In this document: one piece after another, positions 35,418 through 40,632 of the stretch
Numbering within the stretch: the first letter of the stretch is position 1
Layout of the letters: each line of letters begins with the position of its first letter
Assembly (NCBI GenBank): GCA_047517285.1
Contig: JAKZTE010000004.1
Coordinates: 5,500 to 69,499, forward strand
DNA length: 64,000 nt
Direction: 5' to 3'
DNA from: Nitrososphaerales archaeon
GTDB lineage: Archaea > Thermoproteota > Nitrososphaeria > Nitrososphaerales > UBA57
The notes under the pieces: model-generated
Told to the model about the DNA's origin: nothing
The model's database searches: none
Seen by the model: the letters and a program-made list of their open reading frames with translations, nothing else
Made by a program: the position numbers and the translations under genes

Positions 35418-35921
35418 TTAAATGAATAGTGTCAATGCATCAGGTTCGCTGGCCCATGATAAGAATGCAGATGCTCCAACAATATCATCGACTTCAGGAA
35501 TAAGATCCTCTTCTTTAACATCCATGAATCCCATAGTAGGTGAACAAGCATGGAGTTTGACGCCACTGTCTTTAGCCATTTTAATCATTTCATATATATT
35601 AGGCCAAAATTTTTCGATCTTACTCTTCATCATAGTAGAAGCCACCTTAGTCATACCAGGAATTATACCAACTATATTTGGCATAGGCATGCCAGGATTT
35701 CCGACTGGTGCAATCTTTACAGAATTAACACCGTCTTTAGTTAGCGCTTTAAGACCCCAGAAAGTGAAATACATATCACAAGTCATTCCCATAGCAGGTG
35801 CAGTTGTAGCGAGAACAAGAGCAGGATAAAGCATATCAATAGTCCCTTTAGACACTACTAAGACGAGTCTCTTTTTTTGGATTCCGTTATTGCCAGGCTG
35901 ATTAGTAGTCAAATTTATCAC
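35418..35921 (-). CDS. DsrE/DsrF/DrsH-like sulfur-relay protein (DsrE2 type)
   Basis: SKGTID, YFTFWGL, conserved Cys in LHACSPTM, VGASAFL. Confidence 0.9.
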   Translation of the reverse strand: MINLTTNQPGNNGIQKKRLVLVVSKGTIDMLYPALVLATTAPAMGMTCDMYFTFWGLKALTKDGVNSVKIAPVGNPGMPMPNIVGIIPGMTKVASTMMKSKIEKFWPNIYEMIKMAKDSGVKLHACSPTMGFMDVKEEDLIPEVDDIVGASAFLSWASEPDALTLFI

Positions 35922-36166
35922 TTTTTCTGAATATGAAATATAAAGGTCTTAGGAGAAGTATCTTCCACAGCACTATCAAGTAGAATATTGCCAGTTGTAT
36001 GTGCCCAACCTTCAAAATCTATAGGGGCGCCAGGATCAGTAGTAATAACCTTAAGAATTTGACCCGACGAGAGTTTGGCTATTTCCTTATAAGTATTAAT
36101 GATTGGAAGTGGGCAGAGTAATCCTTTTTGATCTAACGTTTGAGAGATATTAAAATTTTCAGACAT
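35918..36166 (-). CDS. tusA: TusA/SirA family sulfur carrier
   Basis: LD.KGLLCPLP (CPxP), TDPGA..D..W. Confidence 0.92.
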   Translation of the reverse strand: MSENFNISQTLDQKGLLCPLPIINTYKEIAKLSSGQILKVITTDPGAPIDFEGWAHTTGNILLDSAVEDTSPKTFIFHIQKK

Positions 36167-36188
36167 CACCTTGATCAACTCCAATAAA

Positions 36189-36854
36189 CTACTTTGTAGA
36201 TGGATCGGCTATCAAACGAATATATGGCTTTACTGTTCTCCATCCATCTGGAAACAGAGATTTTGCTTCTTCGTCTTTGACTGCAGGAACAATTATAACA
36301 TCGTCTCCTTTTTTCCAATTTGCAGGAGTAGCTAATTTATGCTTTGCAGTCAATTGTAGTGAATCAATAATTCTCAGAATCTCTTTAAAATTACGTCCAG
36401 TAGCCATAGGATAACTTAAATGTAATTTGATTTTTTTATCAGGGCCTATAATGAAAACAGATCGAACAGTTTGATTGTCTGCGGCAGTACGGCCAATGCA
36501 ACTACCTTCCGTAGAAGCTGGTAACATATCATATAGTTTTGCAATACGAAGTTCTGTATCTGCAATAAGCGGATAATTAGGTCGGAACCCTGTAACTTCT
36601 GCAATATCGTCCAGCCAAGCTACGTGATCAGCTACTGGATCAACGCTTAAACCTATAATTTTTGTATTTCTACTAAGAAATTCAGACTCGAGTTCGGCAA
36701 GTGCGCCAAGCTCTGTAGTACATACTGGTGTGAAATCTTTTGGATGTGAAAATAACACAGTCCATCCTTCGCCAATCCAATTATGAAATTCGATTTCTCC
36801 ATGGGTGGTCTCTATTTTAAAATCAGGTGCGATATCATTTATTCTAAGCGACAT
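36189..36854 (-). CDS. 1-Cys peroxiredoxin (Prx6)
   Basis: FSHPKDFTPVCTTE, GRNF.EILR, ATPANW; start set at MSLRI. Confidence 0.95.
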   Translation of the reverse strand: MSLRINDIAPDFKIETTHGEIEFHNWIGEGWTVLFSHPKDFTPVCTTELGALAELESEFLSRNTKIIGLSVDPVADHVAWLDDIAEVTGFRPNYPLIADTELRIAKLYDMLPASTEGSCIGRTAADNQTVRSVFIIGPDKKIKLHLSYPMATGRNFKEILRIIDSLQLTAKHKLATPANWKKGDDVIIVPAVKDEEAKSLFPDGWRTVKPYIRLIADPSTK

Positions 36855-37029
36855 CAGAAGTTCCTCCATTTTTGCTATTTTGTATATTTTGGTTCATTGA
36901 TTATAACCCAGTTATAATTATAATGGCGTTATATATATAAAGATATAGTAAATACAATAAAATAATAAAAATTCATAGAGATAAATTGAGAAAAAATAGT
37001 CGTATATATTTAAACAAAGAATCTCAAGG

Positions 37030-37359
37030 ATGTTTATGAATATAAAAATTGAATTCCCAATAAAGTTTCAAGTTGATGTAAATTTAACAGAATCCAATAT
37101 TTCAGGAAAAATTTTTAATGATGATTTAGAAATTCCAATATATATCAAACATGGAGAAAAAGAAATTCTTATTCCTGAAGAATTTCAGGATGTTGGCAGA
37201 AACATTAAAATAAATTTTACAACCGAAAATGAGAAAATAGTAACTATAACAGGAAAAACAGAAATGAACGACATACAATTAATTCAGATATATGATACTG
37301 AATTATGGAATAAAATGGCAAATGATAATCCTGTATCTATGTACATGGAAAGTATTTAG
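37030..37359 (+). CDS. Hypothetical protein
   Basis: 109-aa ORF filling the gap, preceded by a TATA-like TATTTAAA. Confidence 0.65.
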   Translation: MFMNIKIEFPIKFQVDVNLTESNISGKIFNDDLEIPIYIKHGEKEILIPEEFQDVGRNIKINFTTENEKIVTITGKTEMNDIQLIQIYDTELWNKMANDNPVSMYMESI

Positions 37360-37387: not shown

Positions 37388-38731
37388 ATGAAAATACTGA
37401 TCACGGGAGCAAGTGGTTTTATTGGTAAGAAACTTGTTCGATTTCTATTAGACAAAAAAATATCCGTTCGAGTAATGTCAAGGAATTTAAAGAGTTTAGA
37501 TAATCTAGAACATAATAATCTAGAGAAAATAAAAGCTGATGCACAAGACTATAAACAAGTACTGAAGGCTCTAGAAGGAATTGATGTTGCGTATTACCTT
37601 ATTCATTCAATGGAGGGTAAATCAAAGGATTGGGAAAGATTTGCAGATCTGGATAAAAGGATTGCAAGGAACTTTGCCGATGCGGCAACAGAATGCAATG
37701 TAAAGAGAATAATATATGTAGGAGGATTAGCGAGCATCCCAGATAATGAAATGTCCAAACATATGTCAAGTAGACAAGAAGTAGGCGAGATTTTAAAAAC
37801 GTCGAAAGCTAAGGTCACAGTGTTTCGTGCTTCAGTCATTCTAGGTAAAGGGGGTGGAGGCTTTGAAATGATGAGGTATTTAGTAGAAAGATTACCAATA
37901 ATGGTCTGTCCAAGATGGGTTCTGACAAAATTACAGCCAATATACATAGACGATGTGATACTATATCTCTATGAAAGTTTGAATGTTAAAGAAACTGAAG
38001 CGAGAACATTCGATATTGGAGGACCTGACATACTAGAATATAGAGAAATGATGAAAAAGTATGGAAAAATCAATAATAAATCTATAATAATGATAATTAT
38101 ACCATTTCTAAGCCTGAGATTCACCTCATATTGGGTAGATTTGGTTACGCCGATAAGAGCATCATTAGCGCGGCCATTAGTGGAAGGATTAAAAAATCAA
38201 TCAGTAATGACTGAGAAATCAATAATGGACCTGATACCAATCCCACTAAAAGGAGTAGATGAATCATTAAAGTTAACTTCGTATGAGGAAGATAAAGAAG
38301 ACTTCACAAAAAAAGAAAATTACCTTTCTTATTTATTGATAATATTAGGAATTACAGGGGTCTTACATTATCTCATAGATCAAAGATTGATGACAATGCA
38401 ACCATTAACAGGCATAGTAACATTGGTCTGGTTAACAGTAATTGGAATAGGTTATTATTTCGTAAGAAAGAGAGCTAGACTAGGATCGTTGTTGGCAGGA
38501 ATAGTAGGTTGGACTGCAGCGTTATTCTGGTTAACAGACACAATGTATTTGATTTCATATTTACCAAAAATTGGACCATATCAAGTTAGTGAAGGAATGG
38601 CAATTTTAGGAAGTTTTCCTGATGTAAACACGTCAATATTGAACATAATAGGTCTATGTGTAGTTGCATTATTACTAGTAATAGCACACTTTACATTTTA
38701 TGATAAAGAGATTTACACAACACAGTTATGA
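37388..38731 (+). CDS. Atypical SDR/NAD(P)-dependent epimerase (YbjT-like) fused to a C-terminal ~4-TM domain
   Basis: ITGASGFIG, AYYLIHSM, HMSSRQEVG, FRASVILG, QPI; hydrophobic C-terminus. Confidence 0.85.
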   Translation: MKILITGASGFIGKKLVRFLLDKKISVRVMSRNLKSLDNLEHNNLEKIKADAQDYKQVLKALEGIDVAYYLIHSMEGKSKDWERFADLDKRIARNFADAATECNVKRIIYVGGLASIPDNEMSKHMSSRQEVGEILKTSKAKVTVFRASVILGKGGGGFEMMRYLVERLPIMVCPRWVLTKLQPIYIDDVILYLYESLNVKETEARTFDIGGPDILEYREMMKKYGKINNKSIIMIIIPFLSLRFTSYWVDLVTPIRASLARPLVEGLKNQSVMTEKSIMDLIPIPLKGVDESLKLTSYEEDKEDFTKKENYLSYLLIILGITGVLHYLIDQRLMTMQPLTGIVTLVWLTVIGIGYYFVRKRARLGSLLAGIVGWTAALFWLTDTMYLISYLPKIGPYQVSEGMAILGSFPDVNTSILNIIGLCVVALLLVIAHFTFYDKEIYTTQL

Positions 38732-39181
38732 AATAATAAGAAAATATCCTAATGCAGCGCCATAAATTGCGTGATTTACGAAACTTGCAATAATGGGAAG
38801 ATTTCCTAATGGATGCTGAAGAGGTTTGACTTTTGTAATTGGCTCATGGATAACTAGAACTACTAGAGCAAAAAGAAATCCTAAAACTATTCCAGAGATT
38901 AAATATGACACCTGAAAGTTAATTATACTTACAGCAATAGCAAAAGCTATACCTCCAAGCCCACCGTGTAGAAGATGAAAAAAGAAGCTCGGAATTAACA
39001 GTTCTTCAGGATTATTTTTAATAATTTTAGATGTAATAACCTGGTTTTCGTGCCATTCGAGAACAGAGATCATTCCCCATTTTTTATACATTGGGACTTG
39101 AAGAATGGACATTGCACCTGTTGCGATAAAACCTGCAATCAATCCATTTAAGATAAAATCAATATTCATTTCAAAAACCAC
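38726..39181 (-). CDS. Four-TM membrane protein with conserved histidines (paralog A)
   Basis: GLIAGFIAT..MS, WHE, FHLLHG, IHEP, NHAIYG. Confidence 0.75.
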   Translation of the reverse strand: MVFEMNIDFILNGLIAGFIATGAMSILQVPMYKKWGMISVLEWHENQVITSKIIKNNPEELLIPSFFFHLLHGGLGGIAFAIAVSIINFQVSYLISGIVLGFLFALVVLVIHEPITKVKPLQHPLGNLPIIASFVNHAIYGAALGYFLIIS

Positions 39182-39659
39182 TCCATACAGTAAATACTTT
39201 ATAGAAATTAACAGTTAATTCATAATATTGAACCAAGATAAGACCATAGATAGCATGGCCAGATACACTGATCAAAGCAGGTTTGTAGCCAAATGGACTC
39301 TCGCTCAAAGATTCACCAGTAATCAATTTATGAACGGGTAATAACGTAACAATCCAAACTATAACAGAATAAAGCATTCCAAGCAGAATAGTTGGAAAAG
39401 TATTTGTGTAACTAATGTAAAAAACAAATGGAATTGACAATAATGAACCATTAATCACGTGAGTAAGAAATCCGAATGAAGAGATTTTATTGTGAAATTC
39501 TCGATTTGCCAATTTACAAAACATCATTTCACTTTCATGAAGTTCATAGACTCCTTTGAGTCCCCATTTTTTATAAAATGGATATTCGAAGATAGACATA
39601 GCCACAGTAGGAAGAATTCCTGCGATGAATCCAATAAACAAATAATCTATGTAAGTCAA
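39171..39659 (-). CDS. Four-TM membrane protein with conserved histidines (paralog B)
   Basis: GFIAGILPT..MS, LHE, THVING, VHKL, GHAIYG; aligns with the adjacent paralog (shared P.YKKWG). Confidence 0.75.
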   Translation of the reverse strand: MTYIDYLFIGFIAGILPTVAMSIFEYPFYKKWGLKGVYELHESEMMFCKLANREFHNKISSFGFLTHVINGSLLSIPFVFYISYTNTFPTILLGMLYSVIVWIVTLLPVHKLITGESLSESPFGYKPALISVSGHAIYGLILVQYYELTVNFYKVFTVWSGF

Positions 39660-39708
39660 TATTCAATGAATATTTTGTCATCATTTATAATTATACAAAA
39701 AAAATGAT

Positions 39709-39740
39709 ACATAGTGCCAATAATTTGGTCTAGTGCTAAA
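39709..39740. promoter_or_regulatory. Candidate operator: two TAGTGCYAA repeats in a divergent promoter
   Basis: ATAGTGCCAA (39711) and CTAGTGCTAA (39730) between two TATA-like elements. Confidence 0.35.
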
Positions 39741-39774
39741 TACTATATATATTAGAATGTGATTTATTGTCTCA

Positions 39775-40632
39775 ATGGTCTATATAAGAAATAAACGAGT
39801 AAAGGGAATGAATTATTCGTACCTAGTAAAAAGTGTCTGGGACAAAAAGAAAAAGTCATCAAAACAGGAAACGATAAAATATCTCGGAAGAACTGACAAG
39901 ATCGCATTAGAGGACATTCCAAAAGATTACATAGATGACAAGAATATAATTAAGTTCTTTGCAAGTGATCAGAACGCATCAGGTGAAAATTATAATAAAT
40001 ATGTGGAAAAGGTGCGTAAAGATTTATTCAAAAAATTAGCAGGTCCTGGGCCTGTTAACCTAGATACTGTATATGATGGATACAGTGATGATTTTTCAAT
40101 ACTAGAATTTTATGACAGAATAGTGAAGCACATTCTATATGACGTAGGTGATCTTTGGAAGCGAGATGAATTAATGATAGGAACAGAACATGTTGTAAGT
40201 AATAGATTACTTGGGATGATTAGTGAGATAAATAAAAAAGATATGAAGAAGAAGAAGAAATCTAAATTATTAATATGTAATCCTTCTGGTGAACGTCATA
40301 ATATTGTATGTAATATGCTTGAATCGATATTAACTAACAAGGGTTATAATGTATATAATATATCCCCGTCGACTCCAAGCAAAGATGTGATAAAATACGT
40401 AGCAAATATCGAACCAGATATGGTATTAGTATCTATAACACTTCCTGCAAATGTACAAAGTGGTATAAATCTTGTTAAGAACATATCCAAAGACTATGAC
40501 AAACCCATAGTAGTCGGAGGTCAGGCATTAACAGAAAGTAGCTCAAAGAGATTTCTACCAGCCATAGTAATGTCTAATGAAAATACATTAAACGATAATT
40601 TAAAGGAAATTAAGAATTTAGTTCCTGCTTAA
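39775..40632 (+). CDS. CarH-like cobalamin-binding regulator with non-MerR N-terminal DNA-binding domain
   Basis: W-x9-EH (WKRDELMIGTEH), GERH, SIT, VVGG; N-terminal YIRNKRVKGMNYSYLVKSVWD..KQETIKYLGR. Confidence 0.85.
   Translation: MVYIRNKRVKGMNYSYLVKSVWDKKKKSSKQETIKYLGRTDKIALEDIPKDYIDDKNIIKFFASDQNASGENYNKYVEKVRKDLFKKLAGPGPVNLDTVYDGYSDDFSILEFYDRIVKHILYDVGDLWKRDELMIGTEHVVSNRLLGMISEINKKDMKKKKKSKLLICNPSGERHNIVCNMLESILTNKGYNVYNISPSTPSKDVIKYVANIEPDMVLVSITLPANVQSGINLVKNISKDYDKPIVVGGQALTESSSKRFLPAIVMSNENTLNDNLKEIKNLVPA

Follow-up and report, generated by a model that had tools for sequence, protein, structure and literature searches.

The window analysed here is a stretch of 64,000 nucleotides (nt) from contig JAKZTE010000004.1 of a Nitrososphaerales archaeon (assembly GCA_047517285.1). 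It carries a gene, here called REG, whose product joins a predicted DNA-binding head to a cobalamin (B12)-binding module like that of the bacterial light-sensing regulator CarH. A spacer of 115 nt separates REG from two divergent open reading frames (ORFs) for membrane proteins, DUF6789a and DUF6789b, which are probably co-transcribed. A gene for a short-chain dehydrogenase/reductase (SDR) stands tail-to-tail with this pair and follows a small gene, hyp109 (Table 1). The G+C content around the locus is 32-35 %. We consider it reasonably probable that REG is a cobalamin-dependent transcription factor, CarH-like in its working but with a different DNA-binding head. A role as a B12-based light (or B12) switch of gene expression in marine and soil Thaumarchaeota is probable.

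Table 1. Positions of REG, its domains, the predicted promoter elements and the adjacent genes in the window
Feature	Position	Strand	Basis
Small protein hyp109, 109 residues, 5' of SDR	37030..37359	+	ORF
SDR / NAD(P)-binding enzyme, 447 residues, C-terminal membrane domain	37388..38731	+	NAD_binding_10, 6.8e-19
DUF6789-like membrane protein b, 151 residues, 11-nt overlap with gene a	38726..39181	minus	ORF
DUF6789-like membrane protein a, 162 residues, first of divergent pair, probable operator target	39171..39659	minus	ORF
Putative TATA-like box TATAATTATAAA of DUF6789 operon, 24 nt before TTG start	39684..39695	minus	Read from sequence
Predicted operator: TTAGCACTAG (39739-39730) - N9 - TTGGCACTAT (39720-39711)	39711..39739	minus	Conserved block in relatives
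Putative TATA-like box TATATATA of REG promoter, 23 nt before ATG	39744..39751	+	Read from sequence
Regulator gene REG, 285 residues, starts MVYIRNKRVKG	39775..40632	+	ORF list; Pfam B12-binding, 5.2e-10
REG residues 1-45, basic three-stranded beta domain, predicted DNA-binding head	39775..39909	+	AF2, hhalign
REG residues ~70-155, helical bundle with Wx9EH motif	39982..40239	+	AF2
Codons of W128; of E138 and H139	40156-40158; 40186-40191	+	REG helical bundle
REG residues ~160-260, Rossmann B12-binding domain; H175 codon 40297-40299	40252..40554	+	PF02310 over 166-253

The cobalamin-binding module and the N-terminal head

The AlphaFold2 (AF2) model of REG (predicted local distance difference test score, pLDDT, 87; predicted template-modelling score, pTM, 0.72) consists of an N-terminal beta domain of DNA-binding type, a linker, a four-helix bundle (helices 70-89, 96-102, 109-129 and 135-155) and a Rossmann B12-binding domain. 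The Pfam B12-binding family matches the last of these above its cut-off, and a B12-binding_2 cap is found below threshold at residues 108-143. The top NCBIfam model is the CarH equivalog NF052513 (1.2e-14, residues 114-273). Because it scores 54.3 bits against a cut-off of 400, REG is not, by sequence, a CarH orthologue. The MtgC, MtaC and MtbC models match weakly (26-33 bits against cut-offs of 350-450) and below the CarH score. Among PDB sequences the closest relative is 8jbs (8.3e-11, residues 102-252, with the W-x9-EH stretch aligned), and there are further matches to methionine synthase (3.7e-10) and Thermus thermophilus CarH (TtCarH; 6e-7). In a Foldseek search with the AF2 model, ranks 1-31 were all B12 photoreceptor structures, with 8jbt/8jbs, TtCarH, photocobilin and AerR on top, and the first non-photoreceptor, MttC, stood at rank 32. 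An earlier model-made annotation of this DNA, the sequence-only reading, had counted a grouping with corrinoid methyltransferase partners against its own proposal. With CarH as top NCBIfam match and photoreceptors leading the Foldseek list, sequence and structural model support a placement of the cobalamin domain with the B12 photoreceptors and not with those partners.

The motifs on which that reading was built, W-x9-EH and the cobalt-ligand loop GERH, are both present: W128-x9-E138-H139 is WKRDELMIGTEH, and GERH supplies E173 and H175. In a family alignment of 30 sequences that spans 36-91 % identity, W128, E138, H139, P170, G172, E173, H175, S220, T222, G248 and G249 are invariant in all 30, and the E138, H139, ExH, S, T and GG positions are likewise invariant in 17 members of the GC-rich clade described below. 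The sections of PMC9304148 drawn on here give a B12 motif, D/ExHx2G/Px41SxT/Vx22-27GG, and describe Wx9EH as crucial for photoreceptor activity. REG fits the spacing of that motif exactly (E173-x-H175, x41, S220-x-T222, x25, G248-G249). It holds all the residues that hold adenosylcobalamin (AdoCbl) in CarH, namely the Trp, Glu and His above the adenosyl ligand and His175 as lower ligand. The absence of a MerR winged helix and of a DDE or tyrosine catalytic domain, also noted earlier, is borne out by Pfam and NCBIfam, in which no MerR, DDE or tyrosine-recombinase domain matches REG at E <= 1 (the CarH match involves the C-terminal part only), and by the model, in which the N terminus forms three beta strands.

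The N-terminal ~45 residues had been described as a basic, three-stranded segment resembling the N termini of IS1634-like transposases and archaeal integrases. Composition and predicted fold agree with the first part of this description. Residues 1-45 contain 13 Lys/Arg and 3 Asp/Glu (pI 10.2). For this segment in isolation, with 45 homologues in the alignment, AF2 predicts three long antiparallel strands (2-9, 12-23 and 28-39) and a short helix with a pLDDT of 94. The head is also the most conserved part of REG, with 66 % mean identity to the query compared with 31-51 % elsewhere. The likeness to integrases gained no support: the integrase arm-type domain (HPI, 3jtz) aligned with the head at Z 2.6 and a root-mean-square deviation of 3.9 over 48 residues, at rank 39.

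The likeness to IS1634 transposases did hold. A tblastn search of 72,556 plasmids with residues 1-62 of a distantly related, GC-rich REG homologue matched 17 plasmid records, and in 12 of the 17 the match lies under a coding sequence (CDS) that is annotated as an 'IS1634 family transposase'. Nine of these records were opened, and in each the match starts with the opening codons of the transposase CDS. All three of the nine that were scanned are genuine IS1634 transposases (NF033559 309-398 bits, DDE_Tnp_1). Profile comparison by hhalign of 45 REG heads with 9 IS1634 N termini gave a probability of 98.7 % (E 1.5e-16, score 78.1) over 47 columns that start from residue 1-2 of both. As controls, 40 column shuffles scored at most 12.5 and the reversed alignment 7.9. 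Leaving out the GC-rich clade, from which the tblastn query came, so that only 28 Nitrososphaerales-type sequences remained, gave 96.7 % (4.7e-10), and an hmmsearch placed 8 of the 9 transposases above all 8602 background ORFs. That the head is homologous to the N-terminal ~45 residues of IS1634 transposases is thus well supported by sequence comparison, and its closest counterpart would be a transposase front end, not any known regulator family. The end-binding domains of transposases usually lie at the position that matches the REG head.

Domain libraries are silent on the head because the first ~27 residues of the scanned IS1634 transposases fall outside curated models; REG residues 1-100 matched 0 families at E <= 10 in Pfam and PHROGs. 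Residues 1-62 retrieved unnamed clusters from the ESM Atlas (top score 0.79), an uninformative outcome. No head paralogue was found with an N-terminal hidden Markov model among the 8602 ORFs of the host genome. In a word-index search for proteins of more than 499 residues sharing residues 1-58, none of the four candidates scored, a weak null; tblastn afterwards found the transposases. The domain DUF4277 (PF14104) was tried as an identity for the head and ruled out: it is a different, helical transposase domain, found in a single genome out of 201 from the phylum.

Comparison with described systems places these features in context. CarH/LitR proteins (TtCarH, PDB 5C8D/5C8E) share with REG the four-helix bundle with Wx9EH, the Rossmann B12 domain and the lower-ligand His. 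They are among its top fold matches and have in common with it a small local regulon including the own gene, a direct-repeat operator at the core promoter and a genomic link to photolyase. REG differs from them in its beta-domain head, in lacking the MerR winged helix and the His after the Trp, and in an operator of two 10-bp repeats 19-20 bp apart in an archaeal B-recognition element (BRE)/TATA context; the CarH operator consists of three contiguous 11-bp repeats. The B12 domain of a MerR-family protein of Chloracidobacterium thermophilum (8JBS/8JBT) is the best sequence and Foldseek match, and its W-x9-EH aligns residue for residue, but it is bacterial, joined to MerR and only 16-17 % identical in the fold alignment. 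IS1634 transposases (NF033559) share with REG the very N-terminal pattern M-[FV]-x-[RK]-x5-G-x-x-Y-x-[YQ]-L-V-E/K-S-x-[WR]-[DN]-x4-5-[PS]-[RK]-Q-x5-LG. Unlike these proteins of 548-586 residues, REG has 285 residues, no DDE_Tnp_1 and no NF033559 match at E <= 1, and no element inverted repeats were found around its gene. AerR (7TE2) and the photocobilins (8J2W/8J2X) resemble REG in joining the B12 photoreceptor fold to a non-MerR output, and they therefore offer a precedent for reuse of the B12 module. AerR lacks a DNA-binding domain of its own and works by way of CrtJ. Photocobilins, unlike REG, carry a bilin-binding domain, and neither they nor AerR have the REG head.

A paired direct repeat at REG promoters

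When the upstream regions of the closest relatives are aligned, a conserved G+C-containing block, ATAGTGCCAA-N9-CTAGTGCTAA, stands just 5' of a TATA-like run. The reverse complement of this block, TTAGCACTAG, recurs 5' of REG in distant genera. The family consensus is TTAGCACTAG-N9-TTAnCACTAG-TTTAAATA-~22 nt-ATG, in which the two 10-bp elements are direct repeats. We define this pair here as a new, conserved and predicted operator. In 79 loci, 100 nt or more of sequence 5' of REG was available, and in 61 of these a half-site with <= 2 mismatches lies <=150 nt 5' of REG (200 shuffles: mean 10, maximum 17). A same-strand pair 18-21 nt apart does so in 31 of the 79 (shuffles: mean 0.04, maximum 1), with a spacing of 19 nt in 19 loci and of 20 nt in 10.

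The 81 loci collected, 791,661 nt in total, contain 112 operator pairs, nearly all intergenic. For 78 of these pairs a start codon in the same orientation lies no more than 120 nt away, most commonly at 30 nt (28 pairs). By gene, the pairs serve REG (24), the neighbour families c3 (17) and c2 (9), a cyclase-like protein (7), the family c4 (6), DUF6789 (4), SDR (3) and others. From this geometry the proximal repeat would sit directly beside the TATA box, in the place of a BRE, and the transcripts are probably leaderless. In complete genomes, pairs with <= 2 mismatches number eight over all five REG-positive genomes, as against none in five REG-negative genomes of the same family. Seven of the eight were located, a figure that excludes the divergent site L098 of genome G092, which was not listed separately; six of the seven adjoin REG, SDR, c3, amine-oxidase or photolyase genes. 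A 0-mismatch pair of genome G084 (L095) lies away from those genes and has no clear downstream gene. Neither the exact 9-mer TAGTGCYAA across the genome (11 copies against an expected 16.8) nor single half-sites in the window (68 against 52.9 +/- 7.3) are enriched; only the repeat pair is informative.

In the host genome (861 kb) the pair 5' of REG is the sole convincing one, as its seven loose matches compare with 2-8 in shuffles, and its operator copy is the only exact half-site in the window. This copy ends 4 nt before the REG TATA-like box, whose distance to the ATG matches the family consensus spacing. It lies 52 nt from the DUF6789a start and is oriented toward the membrane genes. We infer that this single operator would serve both REG and the divergent DUF6789 pair in the host. 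Control of the divergent membrane genes, as the sequence-only reading had suggested, thus gains a conserved predicted operator in the shared spacer. The suggested control of the neighbouring SDR is split: the SDR is operator-preceded in relatives and adjoins REG in many of them, and no operator was found 5' of the hyp109-SDR operon in the window.

The synteny survey that had been proposed was carried out by phmmer. Among 80 loci, many of which have short flanks, 44 have the SDR-membrane protein next to REG and 9 have DUF6789, and the SDR is the most conserved REG neighbour. For a wider view, all ORFs of the 81 loci were clustered and one representative per cluster was scanned with Pfam. Recurrent neighbours are c3 (~290 residues, signal-peptide-like start), c2 (~190 residues) and c4 (~110 residues, preceding SDR), together with DNA photolyase, DUF1722, an amine-oxidase flavoprotein, a MEDS-domain protein, winged helix-turn-helix (wHTH) proteins, a paralogue of transcription factor B (TFB), a Pyr_redox_2 enzyme, a cyclase-like protein and an epimerase/DUF1731 protein. 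The c3 family (~250-310 residues; L094:1560-2315, L100:578-1519, L049:4852-5724 and 16 further loci) is the second most frequent operator target, and its start lies ~30 nt after the pair in most of these loci; it has no Pfam, NCBIfam or PDB match. In ammonia-oxidising relatives the predicted operator also precedes the SDR operon, the secreted ~290-residue protein, the amine-oxidase flavoprotein and others, and photolyase genes cluster near REG.

Four successive operator pairs occur at the Nitrososphaera-type loci L017, L019, L024, L026, L035, L040 and L044, where they serve a cluster of c25, c2, Pyr_redox_2 and cyclase-like genes adjoining REG. The four pairs therefore point to a larger local regulon in soil lineages.

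Distribution, host context and competing explanations

A word-index search returned 382 REG homologues, and an exhaustive search at E <= 1e-30 gave 41 representatives of clusters, almost all of them full-length. In species-representative genomes 270 REG loci were confirmed, mostly labelled only 'B12-binding'. This accords with the earlier expectation that similar proteins occur under that label in other Nitrososphaerota, and REG is widespread in Nitrososphaerales: the best 80 of the 270 loci are all of Nitrososphaerales type, with cultured strains among them such as Nitrosotenuis chungbukensis MY2 (L042) and Nitrosopumilus sp. b1 (L032). In a sample of 301 genomes of the order, 105 match REG at E <= 1e-20, including one with a fragment only and five with no more than a ~75-bit match in a long ORF of 664-874 residues. 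By family, the counts for REG are 7/14 genomes of the host's own family (7/7 in its genus), 47/74 and 43/73 of two large amoA-bearing families and 0/74 of another large family. One ORF of the latter size class (~830 residues), from a REG-negative genome, proved to be methionine synthase. Proteins of ~838 residues that match REG residues ~75-259 in REG-negative genomes were considered as a second photoreceptor and rejected; they are split methionine synthase. A GC-rich clade of about 30 proteins (P0166-P0234, P0270-P0294) shares the combination of head and B12 domain with REG at 23-29 % identity, and its single named member is a metagenome-assembled genome (MAG) of Thermoplasmatota. Several Nitrososphaeraceae-type soil genomes (G263, G391, G394 and others) carry 2-4 REG copies.

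Within the 301-genome sample, REG is present in 25 of the 26 photolyase-positive genomes, which are kin, and in roughly half of the photolyase-negative genomes of the same two families. Where both genes lie on one contig, they are <=10 kb apart in 12 of 14 genomes. The host does not belong to the ammonia oxidisers: amoA occurs in 0/14 genomes of its family, compared with 24/24 and 22/23 in the ammonia-oxidising families. Genomes of its genus measure 0.8-1.0 Mb, and the nearest named REG loci are in the MAGs ATL_1 and ASW8_bin1 (91 % and 89 % identity). The host encodes a PduO-type adenosyltransferase and methylmalonyl-CoA mutase and therefore uses AdoCbl; its only B12-binding domains are those of the mutase small subunit and of REG. 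It appears to be a B12 scavenger. In four seawater RNA libraries from four studies, contigs of >= 99 % identity cover parts of REG in all four, DUF6789a in two and SDR in three, and leave 39656-39791 and DUF6789b uncovered. Such contigs may include DNA carry-over, and they show neither transcript ends, absence nor expression level.

How might such a protein work? In the dark, AdoCbl-loaded REG would oligomerise, and two heads would then bind one repeat each, from the same side of the DNA. REG so bound would exclude TFB and the TATA-binding protein (TBP) from the promoter. Light would split the Co-C bond, upon which the oligomer would dissociate and the promoters would fire. Action as a repressor is favoured because of the CarH-type analogy and because the site would work in either orientation. 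In this scheme REG is a CarH-like switch by function and not a member of the CarH family, because an IS1634-type head stands in place of the MerR head. A homodimer prediction for residues 66-285 scored 0.00 and counts neither way.

Several points weigh against this scheme. In REG the position where the B12 motif has Gly or Pro is occupied by V178, the altered Gly of HNIVC that the sequence-only reading had correctly noted; elsewhere in the family this residue is G, A or S. The His after the Trp is missing (W128-K129). This His is common in CarH proteins and is the upper ligand in the TtCarH light state. A separate fold check of the head gave no significant structural match (Foldseek none at E <= 0.001; VIA-align best Z 4.3). 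We infer DNA binding by the head from its charge, its homology and the operator only. In the clade of the window, the operator is inverted with respect to REG and is separated from the divergent TATA box by 16 nt instead of 0. The compared loci and genomes are kin, so that counts overstate independence, and the loci that yielded the repeat consensus are also those in which it was later counted. Photolyase is found in 0/7 genomes of the host genus and not in the host genome (81 % complete), in which no CobS was found either. ATL_1 and ASW8_bin1 are described, in the sections of PMC7300363 drawn on here, as small-genome heterotrophic dark-ocean Thaumarchaeota without cobalamin biosynthesis. With such relatives, and lacking CobS and photolyase, the host would find a light sensor less obviously useful. 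Since it is a non-ammonia-oxidiser and an apparent B12 scavenger, a B12-responsive alternative stays live.

In that alternative, which we think unlikely, the signal is cobalamin availability and not light: holo-REG would bind DNA and apo-REG would release it under B12 scarcity. REG would then be an archaeal counterpart of the bacterial B12 riboswitches, which in the host tunes the DUF6789 proteins to B12 supply; to our knowledge, riboswitches are largely lacking in archaea. The proposal draws on a host without CobS, in a clade reportedly without cobalamin biosynthesis (the same sections of PMC7300363), that nevertheless keeps the AdoCbl-dependent mutase and the adenosyltransferase, has just two B12-binding domains in its genome, and belongs to a streamlined genus of ~1 Mb in which REG is kept in 7/7 genomes and photolyase is absent. 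It has to contend with the invariance of Wx9EH, given the role in photoreceptor activity ascribed to it in the cited part of PMC9304148, and with the linked genes of the family as a whole, which are of light-damage type (photolyase, DUF1722, flavoprotein, SDR) and not for B12 transport or synthesis. Light and B12 roles are, moreover, not exclusive. A joint reading, quite unlikely as a whole, would make REG an archaeal B12 switch that in dark-ocean scavengers senses cobalamin availability and governs DUF6789 (perhaps in corrinoid handling or uptake). In sunlit ammonia oxidisers it would also sense light and could lie behind their known light sensitivity. The head would be a former transposase end-binding domain, and the operator a descendant of the element end.

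Two further alternatives deny REG a direct hold on DNA. The repeats could be read by another nearby factor, a winged-helix protein or a dedicated TFB paralogue, with REG acting indirectly, as AerR does on CrtJ, and using its head for oligomerisation or protein contact. Genes for wHTH proteins (HTH_45, HVO_A0261_N) and TFB paralogues do recur beside REG in some loci, the proximal repeat is at the BRE position, and no DNA-binding domain matches the fold of the head significantly. We nevertheless judge this very unlikely, in that such neighbours are a minority (a wHTH cluster of 12 ORFs; TFB in 4/81 loci) and are absent from the window, and the operator accompanies REG itself. The head, besides, surpasses the rest of REG in both conservation and basic charge and is homologous to the transposase position where end-binding domains usually lie. 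That REG is a corrinoid carrier of a methyltransferase system, with no regulatory role, seems to us highly improbable. Some sources do annotate it as 'methanogenic corrinoid protein MtbC1', and there are the weak MtgC/MtaC/MtbC matches; their scores are far under the cut-offs and lower than that of CarH, Wx9EH is invariant, and no methyltransferase partner was found among the recurrent neighbour clusters scanned with Pfam. A carrier role would leave the basic head and the matching operator unexplained.

Thaumarchaeota are major B12 producers and are inhibited by light. In the literature that we searched, no regulator that senses light or B12 was described for this group, and searches for CarH or B12 photoreceptors in Thaumarchaeota, Nitrosopumilus or archaea found nothing on the REG family. 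The strings 'archae', 'Nitroso' and 'transposase' are absent from the main text of a 2024 paper on mining cobalamin photoreceptors. The REG family supplies a concrete candidate regulator, a predicted operator and a short target list that includes several genes of unknown function. It would pair a B12 photoreceptor module with an archaeal BRE/TATA promoter, and it offers a function, predicted DNA binding, for the unannotated N-terminal domain of IS1634 transposases. It is also a candidate for a small new DNA-binding switch of green-light type for optogenetics.

Other genes around REG

The two DUF6789-like membrane proteins divergent from REG both fall slightly under the gathering cut-off of PF20587 (27.1 bits). 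DUF6789a matches at 1.8e-05 (25.3 bits) over model positions 5-135 (131/144), and DUF6789b at 4.5e-05 (24.0 bits) over positions 4-132 (129/144). In the closest relatives of the window, L001 (4997-5887) and L002, an epimerase/DUF1731 (YfcH-like) gene lies between the DUF6789 genes and REG and adjoins the operator. The operator block is unchanged in both, and DUF6789a of L001 is shortened to 89 residues.

At Nitrosopelagicus-type loci (L066/L070 5001-5907 and others), the interval between SDR and REG holds a MEDS-domain protein of 183 residues (PF14417, 4e-8) and a small HTH_45 winged-helix protein, which may form a second regulatory layer.

Upstream of the SDR in the window, hyp109 had no Pfam family in a Pfam scan. 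It is weakly related to the c4 family, of ~110 residues, found 5' of SDR in relatives (phmmer of c4 against the host's own genome, 8.2e-07). Just 5' of the hyp109-SDR operon and on the opposite strand, positions 35918-36869 encode a peroxiredoxin (226 residues) and a TusA-like protein, a context that is kept in the closest relatives L003-L005. The spacer 5' of hyp109-SDR contains an imperfect palindrome, TATAACCCAGTTATAATT / AATTATAATGGCGTTATA, at 36902-36933, which may be a site for another factor.

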